Source: an uncultured Actinomycetota bacterium
Lineage (GTDB): Bacteria > Actinomycetota > Aquicultoria > Subteraquimicrobiales > CAYFXD01
Direction: 5' to 3'
DNA length: 41,928 bases
NCBI GenBank assembly: GCA_964347095.1
Contig: CAYFXD010000118.1
Span: 1 to 41,928, forward strand
The translations under genes and the position numbers were made by a program. Below the pieces are notes generated by a model. It worked only from the letters and a program-made list of their open reading frames with translations, searched no databases and had not been told where the DNA came from. Of this stretch, positions 3,341-28,180 are shown piece after piece (positions within the stretch are counted from its first letter, which is position 1; each line of letters starts with the position of its first letter).

Positions 3341-3452
3341 ACGATTCTAGATACTTGATCCTTGATACTCGATCAAGAGCTTGATGCAAGATTAATCCAG
3401 CACAGTCGTTCTAAGATCTGGTATCCGGTATTGAGAATCTAGTATCCAGTTT
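3341..3452. repeat. Family B palindromic spacer repeat, copy B1 (serA-leuA spacer)
   Basis: The left arm TAGATACTTGATCCTTGATACTCGATCAAGAGC and right arm CTGGTATCCGGTATTGAGAATCTAGTATCCAG are roughly complementary. It shares TATCCGGT and TCTAGTATC blocks with B2, and ATCAAG..CTTGA.TCGAGTATC with B3 (in reverse complement). Confidence 0.55.
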
Positions 3453-7054: not shown

Positions 7055-7235
7055 TCTTGGTAACGGCAATAGTTGGGAAGCTCTTGCGATCGAAGACGGT
7101 TTGCGGTTAGCGGTTGTCGGTGGCGAAGGATCAAAACTGGCAGCTATCGGCCATCGGTTTGCAGTGAACGGTCAACCATGAACCGCTCTTCGGCGCCAAT
7201 CGCAGGCCGAAAACCGAATACCGATTGAGAACGGG
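7055..7235 (+). repeat. Family A intergenic repeat, copy A2 (between leuD and leuB)
   Basis: GACGGTTTGCGGTTAGCGGTTGTCGGTGGCG...GATCAAAACTGGCAGCTATCGGCCATCGGTTTGCAGTGAACGGTCAACCATGAACCGCTCTTCGGCGCC...CCGAAAACCGAATACCGA aligns along its length with A3 and with the reverse complement of A4 (roughly two thirds identity by eye). The outer arms are mutually complementary. Confidence 0.7.
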
Positions 7236-14343: not shown

Positions 14344-14826
14344 ATGGAAAATCTCTGGCGACCTTGGAGGATCAAGTACATCTTGGGCGATAAGGAAAAA
14401 GGCTGTATCTTCTGCGACAAACTCAGGGAGCAGAAGGACACGGAGAATTACATACTACGCAGGTCAGAGACGTCATTCATCATGCTGAATATCTATCCCT
14501 ATAATAACGGCCACCTCATGGTTGTACCATATAAGCATGTTGCCAGTTTTGAGGGCCTGAGCAAAGACGAACTTGGTGAGCTTATGCAAATGGTCAATCT
14601 GTGCACAGAACTTCTGAAGAAAACCATGCGGCCTGATGGCTTCAATATAGGTGTGAATCTGGGCAGAGTAGCGGGCGCGGGTGTTAAAGACCATGTTCAC
14701 ATCCACGTTGTTCCGAGATGGACAGGGGATACGAATTTCATGCCTGTCCTCGCGGACGTGCGAGTCATACCCGAAGGGCTTGACTCAGTATATGAAAGCC
14801 TAGCAAGGGCGGTGGAGACGTTATAG
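14344..14826 (+). CDS. HIT family protein (Ap4A phosphorylase / nucleotidyl hydrolase-like)
   Basis: 160 aa. It carries the histidine triad HVHIHVVPRW and the N-terminal LWRPWRIKYI...GCIFC seen in this HIT subgroup. Confidence 0.85.
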   Translation: MENLWRPWRIKYILGDKEKGCIFCDKLREQKDTENYILRRSETSFIMLNIYPYNNGHLMVVPYKHVASFEGLSKDELGELMQMVNLCTELLKKTMRPDGFNIGVNLGRVAGAGVKDHVHIHVVPRWTGDTNFMPVLADVRVIPEGLDSVYESLARAVETL

Positions 14827-14868
14827 GCTGAAACGGGTGTACGGCTCGCTGGCTACTGAGCGTCTCAT

Positions 14869-14940
14869 ATCCCCAATTAGGGACTCCTAGCTGCTGATTG
14901 CTGACTTGGCCCCCCAATCCTGAACCCCGGACTCCGAATC
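14869..14940. repeat. Family D short repeat, copy D1
   Basis: TCCCCAATTAGGGACTCC and CCTGAACCCCGGACTCCGAATC parallel ACCCTGAATTCGGGACTAC and CCCCTGAACCCTGAATTC of D2. Confidence 0.35.
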
Positions 14941-15007
14941 TAAAGTTTCGCCTGGATACATACGATATAGAATCTGAATATCTGAGTTCTCCGACAAAGG
15001 TCGATCG

Positions 15008-15400
15008 ATGGAAGATGTGTTTAAGCCAGGCAAGACAGACGTGCAAGCTGAGCGTGGGGATGGCTTGGAGAATGAGATTGAAAAGAAACATGACCGGCAG
15101 GTCGTCATTTCTGTGCTAATTGTTGTATTCATGGTCTTCTTGGTTGTTGGCTGGGTGAATTTTCAGTCGGGCAAATCTTTTAATGTCCCTGACCAGATCA
15201 TGTATGAGAATGCGGTGTATCACACCCAAGGTGAGATAATTGAGGCCGAAGATTTGACGAGCACTGGCCAAAAGATAGACAAGATGGAGATTTATATTGT
15301 GGAAGCCACATCCGGCAAAACATATTCCAAGCCTGCGCACAAAGTTTTTCTGAAAGTGGGCGAGGACTATGTTGTATATGTTATGAAAAAGAGCAGGTAA
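15008..15400 (+). CDS. Hypothetical single-pass membrane protein
   Basis: 130-aa ORF with one clear TM helix (VVISVLIVVFMVFLVVGWV). The ribosome-binding site is weak and I recognise no family. Confidence 0.4.
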   Translation: MEDVFKPGKTDVQAERGDGLENEIEKKHDRQVVISVLIVVFMVFLVVGWVNFQSGKSFNVPDQIMYENAVYHTQGEIIEAEDLTSTGQKIDKMEIYIVEATSGKTYSKPAHKVFLKVGEDYVVYVMKKSR

Positions 15401-15524: not shown

Positions 15525-15770
15525 CCGGACTGTTGACAAGTCTAAAATGTCCTAGATTGTCATTGCAGTCCAGATGCGTTAGGCCGGGTGTCAGTGTCTC
15601 TGTAAAGGTTACGGTTAGGAAGCCTGTGTCCCAAACTCGGTTTGCAGTTGGCAGTTTGCGGTTCGCGCAAGATCAAAACCAGCGTTTATCGGCTATCGGT
15701 TTACCGTGAACGGTGACGCGTGAACTGGTCTTGGGCGCTAACCGCGTGCCAAAAAAAACCGCACACCGAC
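15525..15770 (+). repeat. Family A intergenic repeat, copy A3 (long form, upstream of dnaE)
   Basis: GCAGTTTGCGGTTCGCGCAAGATCAAAACCAGCGTTTATCGGCTATCGGTTTACCGTGAACGGTGACGCGTGAACTGGTCTTGGGCGCTAACC...AAAACCGCACACCGA matches A2 and A4. A further 5-prime module, TTGACA-N17-ATTGTCATTGCAGTCCAG, is shared with A4. Confidence 0.7.
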
Positions 15771-15798
15771 TTACTATCTTCACAGGAGCGTGCTCTTC

Positions 15799-19261: not shown

Positions 19262-19432
19262 TGAGGAAAAAAGGGCAAATGAGGGAAAATGAGGGAAAAG
19301 CAAGTTTGGCATTGTGGGGCCTTCACCTTGCTCGGCGTAAACTCGCGACCAAGAGTCTCAAGGGAAAACCCGCATGAAAACGAATTTGTCAATTCTTTGA
19401 TGTTTCTTACATTCCTTGATCTTCCCTAATAT
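19262..19432. repeat. Family F palindromic spacer repeat, copy F1 (dnaE-hisD spacer)
   Basis: The left arm is GGGCAAATGAGGGAAAATGAGGGAAAAGCAAG. The right arm is CTTACATTCCTTGATCTTCCCTAATATGG. GATCTTCCCT and CTTAC(A/G)TTCCTTGA are shared with F2. Confidence 0.55.
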
Positions 19433-20800: not shown

Positions 20801-20855
20801 AGCGGTTTGCGGTTAGTGGTTTGTGCTAGCCGAACACTGAAGACCGCGCGCCGGT
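20801..20855 (+). repeat. Family A repeat, miniature copy A5 (outer arms only), upstream of the HAD gene
   Basis: GAGCGGTTTGCGGTTAGTGGTTTGTGC matches the A2 left arm GACGGTTTGCGGTTAGCGGTTGTCGG. The following AGCCGAACACTGAAGACCGCGCGCCG resembles the A2 right arm. Confidence 0.5.
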
Positions 20856-22478: not shown

Positions 22479-22587
22479 AGAGATACGAGATACTGGATGC
22501 CGGATGATTTATAAAGACCGATGGTGAATGTACGGTCTACCAAGGTTTGATTATCCGGTGTCTAGTATCAAGGATCTAGAATCGAGT
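22479..22587. repeat. Family B palindromic spacer repeat, copy B2 (hisB-hisH spacer)
   Basis: The arms GAGATACGAGATACTGGATGCCGGATGATT and GATTATCCGGTGTCTAGTATCAAGGATCTAGAATCGAG are imperfectly complementary. The central loop contains the perfect 6-bp hairpin AGACCG...CGGTCT. Confidence 0.55.
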
Positions 22588-23921: not shown

Positions 23922-23996
23922 GCGGGATGCGGGATATTGGATAAAATACTCTATTTTCTATCAAGCATCTTGAATCGAGTATCGTGTATCAAGTGC
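23922..23996. repeat. Family B spacer repeat, copy B3 (hisA-hisF spacer)
   Basis: ATCAAGCATCTTGAATCGAGTATCGTGTATCAAGTGC closely parallels the reverse complement of B1 (ATCAAGCTCTTGATCGAGTATCAAGGATCAAGTATC). Confidence 0.55.
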
Positions 23997-24055: not shown

Positions 24056-24868
24056 ATGCTTACCAAGCGGATTATTCCCTGTCTCGACGTGGACAAGGGC
24101 AGGGTGGTGAAGGGAACAAGATTTGTGGACATCAGAGATGCCGGCGATCCTGTAGAGATGGCATCCTTCTATGACCAAGAAGGTGCAGATGAGCTGGTCT
24201 TTCTGGATATTACAGCCTCGCAAGAGGAAAGAAAAACAACGTTAGAAGTGGCACGACATACCGCGGAGCAGGTCTTTATCCCTTACTCTGTAGGCGGAGG
24301 AATTCGTACGACCGACGACATCAGGAATCTTCTGTCCGCGGGTGCCGACAAAGTATCACTGAACACGGCAGCGGTCGAGCATCCCGAAATAATAACGGAG
24401 GCGTCCAAAAAGTACGGAAGTCAATGCATTGTTGTGGCGATTGATGCTAGGCAGGTTCACGGTTCACGGTTGACCGTTCAGGGTAAAACCAGTTCGGCAG
24501 AGTCTTCCGCCGCGCAGTGGGAGGTTTATCTTCATGGTGGGAGGACGCCCACCGGGATTGACGCAGTTGAGTGGGCTGAGAAGGCTGAGTCGCTGGGAGC
24601 GGGCGAGATTCTTCTTACCAGCATGGACCGGGACGGCACCAAGGACGGTTATGACATTGCGCTCACAAAGGCAGTTGCGGAGTCAGTAAATATCCCAGTG
24701 ATAGCTTCTGGAGGAGCTGGAAAGCTCGATCACTTTTTTGCAGCAATAGACCAAGCGGGTGCCGATGCAGTACTCGCGGCCTCGCTTTTCCATTACGGCG
24801 AGCTGACAATAAAGCAGGTCAAGGATTTCTTGAGCTCAAAAGGAGTCCCAATCCGGCCACCGAAGTGA
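24056..24868 (+). CDS. hisF: Imidazole glycerol phosphate synthase, cyclase subunit
   Basis: 270 aa. It has [33 protein letters not shown] and IASGGAG motifs. It contains an extended loop at nt 24454-24516 with nucleotide similarity to the family-A intergenic repeat (see findings). Confidence 0.9.
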
Positions 24869-24879
24869 AAAGCATGGGA

Positions 24880-25027
24880 GCAGTGGGCACATAGAAGAAG
24901 GCAAAAGAATACCAAGGAAGAAAAGCGGCAAAGGAAAAAGGAAGAGCGTCCTGTCATTTCTTGTCCCCGATCTTCCCTCATTTCTGTGATTTTTGCTTAC
25001 GTTCCTTGAGGACTGTTCCTCAAGGAA
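24880..25027. repeat. Family F palindromic spacer repeat, copy F2 (hisF-hisI spacer)
   Basis: The purine-rich arm GAAGAAGGCAAAAGAATACCAAGGAAGAAAAGCGGCAAAGGAAAAAGGAAGAGC is followed by the pyrimidine-rich arm CATTTCTTGTCCCCGATCTTCCCTCATTTCTGTGATTTTTGCTTACGTTCCTTGAGG. It ends in a perfect 11-bp hairpin. Confidence 0.55.
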
Positions 25028-27905: not shown

Positions 27906-27944
27906 TTAATTAACGGAAGAGTTAGGGTTATAATATCCATTTTC

Positions 27945-28180
27945 CATCAGTGTTCACTTTCCGGTGTGTGGTTTAGTGCCGAAGAGCGGTTCACGGTGGG
28001 CCGTTCGCCGTAAGCCGATAGCAGATAACCGTCGGTTTTGATCTTGCGAGAACCGAGAACCTCCAACCGTTTCCAACGATATAGGCTTACTAACTCTAAC
28101 CGTTACAATGACACCTACACTGGTTTAACCCGCCTGGATTGCAATGACCATCAAGCAAGGCATAGATCTGTCAACCAGTT
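27945..28180 (-). repeat. Family A intergenic repeat, copy A4 (long form, inverted, between lysS and clpC)
   Basis: Its reverse complement reads CGCAAGATCAAAACCGACGGTTATCTGCTATCGGCTTACGGCGAACGGCCCACCGTGAACCGCTCTTCGGCACTAAACCACACACCGG, collinear with A3 and A2. It also carries the TTGACA-N17-ATGGTCATTGCAATCCAG module. Confidence 0.7.

Follow-up and report, generated by a model that had tools for sequence, protein, structure and literature searches.

A heptamer-array insert in a surface turn of HisF shares sequence with a dispersed intergenic repeat of the same uncultured Actinomycetota genome

Introduction

How does a piece of a dispersed intergenic repeat come to be read, in frame, inside an essential enzyme of histidine biosynthesis? 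The question is raised by contig CAYFXD010000118.1 of an uncultured Actinomycetota bacterium, a stretch of 41,928 nucleotides (hereafter the window) in which hisF carries an additional 51 nt, part of which resembles an intergenic repeat of the same DNA, here called family A. The initial annotation proposed that a selfish palindromic element may have colonised a permissive loop of the enzyme, as Rickettsia palindromic elements (RPEs) do. The analysis reported here leads to a partly different answer: the insert is the local state of an old and recurrently remodelled heptamer-array insertion and not the outcome of a one-off palindromic transposition. We consider it probable, at roughly 60%, that the insert is tolerated passenger repeat DNA which turns over by slippage, by homogenisation of its units and through the exchange or capture of intergenic repeats.

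Results

Position of the insertion in HisF

The open reading frame (ORF) at 24056-24868 on the forward strand encodes 270 residues, and its predicted product is, by sequence and by modelled fold, the (beta/alpha)8 barrel of HisF, the cyclase subunit of imidazole glycerol phosphate synthase. A phmmer comparison with HisF-LUCA (4evz) gave E = 7e-105, PF00977 is recorded in Pfam for the protein (P0001), and the catalytic residues Asp11 and Asp130 (T. maritima numbering) occupy invariant alignment columns. The AlphaFold2 model, based on a 27-sequence alignment, is a normal barrel with a mean predicted local distance difference test (pLDDT) score of 83.9, and Foldseek returned target-normalised TM-scores of 0.91-0.96 against the top-ranked solved HisF structures. 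The reading frame is intact, as had been claimed, and lies in an intact his operon with hisH, hisA and hisI adjacent; the gene run hisD-hisC-hisB-hisH-hisA-hisF-hisI-greA-lysK-clpC is syntenic with two related loci, L081 and L092.

Alignment with the solved HisF structures 4evz, 1ka9 and 1h5y leaves a gap that corresponds to an in-frame insertion of 17 codons (51 nt) at 24461-24511 (+), that is, to residues 136-152, starting six residues past the catalytic Asp130. The earlier estimate was of a loop roughly 10-17 residues longer than in the HisFs of Thermotoga and Mycobacterium. Since pLDDT falls below 50 at residues 137-150, between two flanking strands (residues 125-134 and 154-159), the insert is predicted to form a disordered tip on the beta-hairpin next after strand beta5, and the supposition of a permissive loop within an otherwise HisF-like barrel was thereby borne out. 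From published HisF structures we take the loop tip to lie on the catalytic face, away from the HisH interface.

The heptamer array and its homology to family A

The DNA at 24454-24490 reads GGTTCAC GGTTCAC GGTTGAC CGTTCAGGGTAAAACC, and this sequence, its coordinates and the loop translation within the 270-residue ORF are as first described. Over 24454-24488 (+) it forms a tandem array of the heptamers GGTTCAC, GGTTCAC, GGTTGAC, CGTTCAG and GGTAAAA, translated in all three phases; with at least three 7-nt units head to tail it is a heptanucleotide tandem repeat, and Tandem Repeats Finder assigned period 7, 4.4 copies and 79% matches to 24454-24484. With 20 of 28 matches at lag 7, a count that no other 35-nt stretch of the window reaches, 24454-24488 is the cleanest of the heptamer arrays here, and the sole coding one, seven of the eight period-7 arrays being intergenic. 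The GGTTCAC unit is free of stop codons in the hisF orientation only, the opposite orientation yielding TGA.

Family A itself, as delimited by alignment and an nhmmer profile, is an intergenic repeat of about 165 nt that is present in the 42 kb three times in full and once in part. The full copies lie at 7071-7233 (-; 166 bits), upstream of dnaE at 15614-15778 (-; 164 bits) and in the lysK/clpC spacer at 27939-28095 (+; 151 bits), the last being present also in an independent record, L089. The partial copy is a CGGTTTG array between hisD and hisC (20802-20845, no strand assigned) that was matched weakly, at E = 0.08.

When the profile was built from the three intergenic copies alone, with hisF left out, its best non-self match in the window was 24460-24489 (+) within hisF, homologous to the family A core (profile positions 51-80 of 167; E = 4.1e-4). 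Elsewhere in the window the 28-mer at 24460-24487 is matched best at 7158-7185 (-), with 24 of 28 positions identical and a maximum of 20/28 in 300 dinucleotide shuffles; against the three-copy consensus, 27 of 28 positions agree (counted by eye from the alignment). The family A copies quoted in the initial annotation are present at 7161-7184 (-) and 27988-28016 (+), its counts of 20/24 and 19/20 are correct, and its match to hisF does exceed what shuffling produces. The hisF array and the family A consensus run through the same order of unit variants, CGGTTCA, CGGTTGA, CCGTTCA and.GGTAAA, which argues for copying and not merely for a common unit.

Exact sharing of 11-mers between the inserts and their own or other loci proved too noisy and was replaced by blastn-short and by Smith-Waterman alignment with shuffles. 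Against family A, the latter gave z = 8.7 for the window insert, 3.5 for the insert of relative L087 and less than 2 for the other relatives, and the best match of the hisF insert among 1.27 Mb of related loci is the family A of its own genome. Judged by nucleotide sequence, the homology between hisF and family A is beyond chance.

This homology covers the left part of the insert alone (24460-24489). For the right part, 24488-24517, nothing above chance was found elsewhere in the window; it contains a short imperfect inverted repeat, CGGCAGAGTCTTCCGCCG (24495-24512, no strand assigned), which a consensus scan recorded as a terminator-like match on the minus strand. On inspection, neither a target-site duplication nor element ends were seen at the insert junctions. 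Of the proposal that a family A element sits in the loop, the homology to a dispersed family thus stands, while the element is reduced to an internal 30 nt of about 165.

Properties and distribution of family A

The left two-thirds of family A consist of degenerate CGGTTNN heptamers and its right end of AACCGNN heptamers. Because these heptamers stand in opposite polarity at the two ends, the profile weakly matches its own reverse complement (E = 6e-5 to 0.06). Relative to shuffled sequences, fold z-scores were 0.45, -2.2 and 0.35 for the family A copies and -0.1 for the hisF segment; two of the three copies thus fold no better than shuffled sequence, and the term palindromic, as originally applied, is a weak one. 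A structured RNA or a strong palindrome was also considered and was dropped, as the family A copies and several hisF inserts were not consistently above shuffles in RNA folding. In none of the full copies is any of the six frames free of stop codons, and therefore an ORF can retain fragments alone, and these in a single orientation and phase.

The family A profile had no match at E ≤ 1 in 1.27 Mb of about 90 other loci, a distant search against plasmids gave no match, and Rfam returned nothing for the window, either at gathering thresholds or at E ≤ 0.1. A metagenome-wide scan with a family A pattern of 21 specified bases recovered L089 alone, in which this organism's lysK-clpC locus is recorded again.

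Occupancy of the same turn in related HisF proteins

Loops of 13-53 residues, in place of the canonical 6-8, are found in about 60 of 119 HisF homologues, and in a rough tree the long-loop proteins are spread over several clades. The eight closest HisFs all carry an insert at the same turn, with no empty site among them; all close relatives are 73-81% identical to the window protein, and the loop of 6-8 residues occurs in more distant HisFs alone. A private colonisation of an empty site does not agree with a turn that is filled in all close relatives and in about half of the homologues. The relatives' loops occupy this turn without matching the family A profile, and what fills them is built of other heptamer units.

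The insert peptides are typically periodic in 7 residues and fall into two blocks, and at the approximately 20 loci where the loop DNA was read there are two heptamer arrays with differing units. In L083 the loop is (GTTCAAG)x4.3, a spacer and (ACTCCCA)x4.6; in L081, (GTCCRAG)x5 is followed by (AACCAAC)x4.6; L087 combines GTTCACA-type units with inverted CGTGAAC-type units; and the loops of L084 and L005 contain (TCTCATC)x4 and (AAGGGTC)x4, respectively. Further heptamer inserts occur in Nitrospirota, Methylomirabilota and other metagenome-assembled genomes (MAGs). All hisF array units seen are stop-free in three phases in the sense orientation. The DNA of short-loop HisFs holds no obvious proto-repeat that would account for the hot spot. 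Some units recur across phyla, in that arrays of Bacillota are made of units found in the hisF inserts of other lineages; these Bacillota arrays, of GTCAGGA and GTTCAAG, lie outside hisF (L009:13703-13727, L036:2549-2571 and L036:4159-4177) in loci whose HisF loops are short and canonical.

In the Nitrospirota loci L038 (10394-10519), L056 (10394-10519) and L074 (3658-3783) the HisF insert is 42 residues long and contains a conserved (E/D)(I/V)PDWL...L motif flanked by heptamer-derived ends, and it may have been put to use there as a structured segment. In the HisF loop of L027 (10394-10516) the end of strand beta5 is duplicated in tandem (KRSTVAIDAKRSTVAIDAKR), a length change of another kind at this site. 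In the homologue P0002 (384 aa) about 110 residues across beta3-beta5 are duplicated internally, owing either to an artefact of assembly or to a genuine partial duplication of the gene.

Turnover of the loop arrays

Within clusters of at least 90% identity, the HisF core is 95-98% identical and the loop 33-58%, and changes in the number and the sequence of units from strain to strain are seen in the hisF arrays of relatives. One such pair is L090:694-1518 and L091:595-1419, two hisF genes of about 97-98% nucleotide identity outside the loop, in which every unit of both arrays differs at a constant total length of 87 nt: the arrays are (GTCGACA)x4 + (CTCCCSA)x4 in L090 and (GTCAAGA)x2(GTCAGGA)x2 + (CCTCCAA)x3 in L091. 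P0263 is shorter than P0013 by exactly 7 residues (21 nt, or three units), and P0011, with an 11-residue loop, has lost 18 residues relative to P0010, whose loop has 29.

Gain was also seen. The hisF genes of L088 and L092 are nearly identical apart from a 57-nt in-frame insertion in the right array of L088 (524-580; CTTGTCCTGCC...GCGTAGTCGAAGGG), which is absent from L092 and L084 and whose ends match a repeat of the sister contig L084 (33-73) that lies a short way upstream of hisF. It is an independent and recent case of repeat DNA entering the HisF loop. To this extent the relatives support the RPE-like entry of repeat DNA into the loop, in frame, that was first suggested.

A cassette of about 600 nt at L081:136-731 carries a small gene (300-644) for a 23S-rRNA-IVP/bAvd-like four-helix bundle; on either side of it stand 36-nt inverted repeats of GACTGAA heptamers with 86-96% complementarity. 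In L092 (1310-1396) the same two neighbouring genes have no cassette between them, and none is apparent at the corresponding window spacer, 14826-15008. The heptamer arrays seem to act here as terminal inverted repeats of a mobile cassette. The bAvd-like gene led us to consider a mechanism of the diversity-generating retroelement (DGR) type, which was rejected for the hisF arrays, the differences between L090 and L091 not being adenine-specific.

Age and direction of the relation between hisF and family A

The closest relative, L085, has a HisF core 87% identical to that of the window, and local alignment identifies a tail of the window insert, 24475-24500 (+), as common by descent with the L085 insert. 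In this alignment GTTCAG---GGTAAAACCAG-TTCGGCAG is paired with GTTCAGACCGGCAAAACCAGAATCGGAAG at a score of 21 that none of 1000 shuffles reached. The homologous portion includes GTTCAGGGTAAAACCAG, the 3' part of the family-A-like stretch, which overlaps the last 14 nt of the 30-mer; at least GTTCAGGGTAAAACCAG is therefore older than the split between the window and L085. The insert of L087 has GTTCAC and GTTGAC units in both orientations, for which reason GTTCA-type heptamers are, judging by these sequences, probably ancestral at the loop site.

As the hisF array is at least partly older than the L085 split, a direction from family A into hisF is not established. The near-consensus array in the window may be due to any one of three courses of events: continuing exchange, by gene conversion or template switching via heptamer microhomology; seeding of the family A core from a hisF-type array; or a later overwriting of the hisF array from family A.

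Heptamer repeats across the window and its setting

In the intergenic DNA of the window, L081 and L083, autocorrelation is 0.32-0.33 at lag 7 and about 0.29 at lag 14, over a baseline of about 0.25 at most other lags; the coding DNA of the same three loci has no lag-7 peak and a 3-nt period alone. Compared by locus, the intergenic lag-7 excess is 0.019 with a long HisF loop versus 0.003 (59 loci; one-sided Mann-Whitney p = 0.026).

A second intergenic heptamer family, with GATACTT/GATCCTT units in both orientations, occurs at 3342-3373, 22553-22586 and 23974-23994, one of the copies lying about 60 nt 5' of the hisF start codon. A tandem repeat of AGGGAAAATG lies between dnaE and hisD (19272-19303) and its inverted partner (27 nt, 81% complementary) between hisF and hisI (24957-24983), so that the two flank the hisD-hisF block.

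DnaE from the window is 76-80% identical to its closest relatives, which are from metagenomes; the nearest named ones are deep-branching Actinomycetota MAGs at no more than 66%, with Candidatus Oleimmundimicrobium, Aquicultor and Humimicrobiaceae among the named matches of lower rank. GC skew is positive in all 2-kb bins of the window (1-41928) and nearly all long ORFs are on the forward strand, which is consistent with a single leading-strand segment of a replichore.

Discussion

The explanation that we favour, tolerated passenger repeat DNA, would run as follows. The intergenic DNA of the lineage is rich in degenerate 7-nt arrays, the material from which dispersed families such as family A are also built. 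The turn of the beta5 hairpin is a surface tip, predicted to be disordered, where extra residues would leave the barrel undisturbed, and an ancestor of the clade would have gained heptamer-array DNA there, in the sole orientation and phase that is free of stops. Slipped-strand mispairing would then have altered the number of units, with only net changes divisible by three persisting (for example 21 nt, three units), while the units within an array would have been homogenised and other intergenic repeats occasionally captured or exchanged through heptamer microhomology. In the window's lineage such exchange, possibly by gene conversion, would connect the family A core with the left array, and the insertion itself would be as old as the clade.

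Several points weigh against this explanation. The concerted replacement of units at constant length in L090 and L091 is not easily obtained from slippage under a continuous frame constraint. The link between lag-7 excess and long loops is modest and driven by the window's own clade, and the insert-bearing Nitrospirota loci L005, L030 and L038 have no intergenic heptamer excess in their 20 kb. That the insert is neutral for the enzyme would follow from its predicted disorder and its hypervariability, and slippage in the window's own organism is presumed from array changes observed in relatives alone. Finally, the direction and the timing of the relation to family A are not fixed by 42 kb of this genome.

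Among the other explanations, a recent insertion of family A as a selfish unit resembling an RPE or a MITE (a miniature transposable element with inverted repeats), followed by an internal deletion that left a 51-nt in-frame remnant, is unlikely, though we rate it above the remaining ones. It would account for the real homology to a dispersed, organism-specific family and for a window insert that is far more family-A-like (z = 8.7) than those of relatives (z < 2; L087 3.5), and there are precedents in the heptamer arrays that seem to serve as terminal inverted repeats of the L081 cassette and in the 57-nt repeat that recently entered the same loop in L088. The hisF segment nevertheless amounts to an internal 30 of about 165 nt with neither element end and no target-site duplication seen at its junctions; family A is not convincingly a stable palindrome; and the site already had GTTCA-type heptamers in relatives, 14 nt of the family-A-like stretch being orthologous to the L085 insert. 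A functional and selected insert is improbable in our estimation, whether it acted as a peptide, for example a lineage-specific loop for regulation or interaction close to the active-site face, or as a signal in the RNA or DNA of the his operon, a version in which the repeated heptamers would be sites for an oligomeric nucleic-acid-binding protein. Retention of the site across many lineages, the conserved total loop length of 29 residues in one subclade despite sequence turnover, the recurrent two-array architecture and the PDWL...L motif common to L038, L056 and L074, which suggests exaptation in those Nitrospirota, are all in keeping with selection. Against it stand a sequence that is hypervariable even between near-identical strains, the predicted disorder of the loop, a fold energy no better than that of shuffles together with the lack of an Rfam match, and the close pair P0010 and P0011 (29 and 11 aa), which differs by the loss of most of the insert; moreover, units differ between genomes and between arrays, so that no single binding specificity fits.

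It is similarly improbable, in our view, that the arrays are written or rewritten by an active and undescribed process at the DNA level, of which the HisF loop would be a reporter and which may double as a reversible switch of histidine prototrophy. Candidates for such a process are a machinery that uses heptamer arrays as element ends and the templated replacement of arrays; if real, it would explain how hisF genes of about 97-98% identity differ in all units at constant length. The same turnover would be easier if the frame were transiently broken, as it would be at a contingency locus in which 7-nt slippage toggles hisF and produces phase-variable histidine auxotrophy within a cross-feeding community. 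Units of 7 nt do shift the frame and two arrays could compensate each other, yet no frameshifted allele was encountered, all 119 homologues being open across the loop (in a protein database that would under-represent broken genes), and arrays as short as 4-5 units are expected to slip at low rates; we regard a contingency locus as very improbable. Least credible of all is that two heptamer arrays of unrelated origin resemble each other by chance or composition. Both arrays are based on a CGGTT-type unit, and low-complexity periodic DNA inflates matches relative to shuffles, but the order of unit variants is common over four units, the profile match has E = 4e-4, 24 of 28 positions are identical where the shuffles reached 20 of 28 at most, and no comparable match exists in 1.27 Mb of other loci.

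The preferred reading, recurrently remodelled passenger DNA, has partial counterparts in known systems. RPEs, a subject associated with Ogata and colleagues (2000), are reportedly inserted in frame in protein genes. They are whole elements of about 100-150 bp with a stable palindromic structure and one insertion per site. As in those cases, a dispersed repeat sequence is found in frame in a surface-exposed, permissive site of a housekeeping protein whose fold is kept. In contrast to them, hisF contains an internal 30-nt fragment of family A within a 7-nt tandem array, the full family A copies are unreadable in any frame, and the site is filled by different arrays in many lineages, with rapid turnover.

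Cyanobacterial short tandemly repeated repetitive (STRR) heptanucleotide sequences are said to occur inside the RNase P RNA gene, a finding attributed to Vioque (1997). Long simple sequence repeats with 7-nt units have been summarised (PMC4679880), and the resemblance to both lies in heptamers that are abundant between genes, are found occasionally in a gene at a permissive position and vary in length between strains. The present case differs from the cyanobacterial one in phylum (Actinomycetota) and units, and in having as its host a protein-coding gene for an essential enzyme, where the array has to remain free of stops in all three phases and only lengths in multiples of three pass the filter. 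Direct repeats of the heptamer TAACTGA in Beggiatoaceae, Cyanobacteria and Bacteroidetes (MacGregor 2015, PMC4679880) are similar in their intergenic arrays with occasional copies in ORFs, tolerated in the stop-free orientation alone and encoding peptides periodic in 7 residues. In that study each genome is dominated by one unit, and the copies within ORFs fall at the ends of proteins or in hypothetical ones (PMC4679880), whereas here many units coexist and the array lies within a conserved enzyme, where one site recurs from lineage to lineage.

MITEs within genes are reported for Coxiella (PMC5896051) and enterobacteria (PMC3184786), and the likeness is that small non-autonomous repeats supply in-frame coding sequence. 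None of the features of MITEs, namely terminal inverted repeats, target duplications and a cognate insertion sequence, was shown for the hisF segment; family A itself does end on both sides in heptamer arrays, which are opposite in polarity.

Repeat DNA in genes is thus already known from Rickettsia RPEs and MITEs, and heptamer arrays from cyanobacteria and Beggiatoaceae. What is unusual is their combination, in which a frame-breaking 7-nt unit is kept in frame inside a conserved, essential TIM-barrel enzyme, and in which one turn of that enzyme is reused by many uncultured lineages, evolves far faster than the rest of hisF and has sequence in common with intergenic repeats. The finding raises the question of whether heptamer arrays can render biosynthetic genes phase-variable. 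For HisF, a model protein of enzyme design, it also supplies a natural map of one highly permissive site for insertions, and it provides a compact marker locus for the origin, homogenisation and movement of heptamer repeats.

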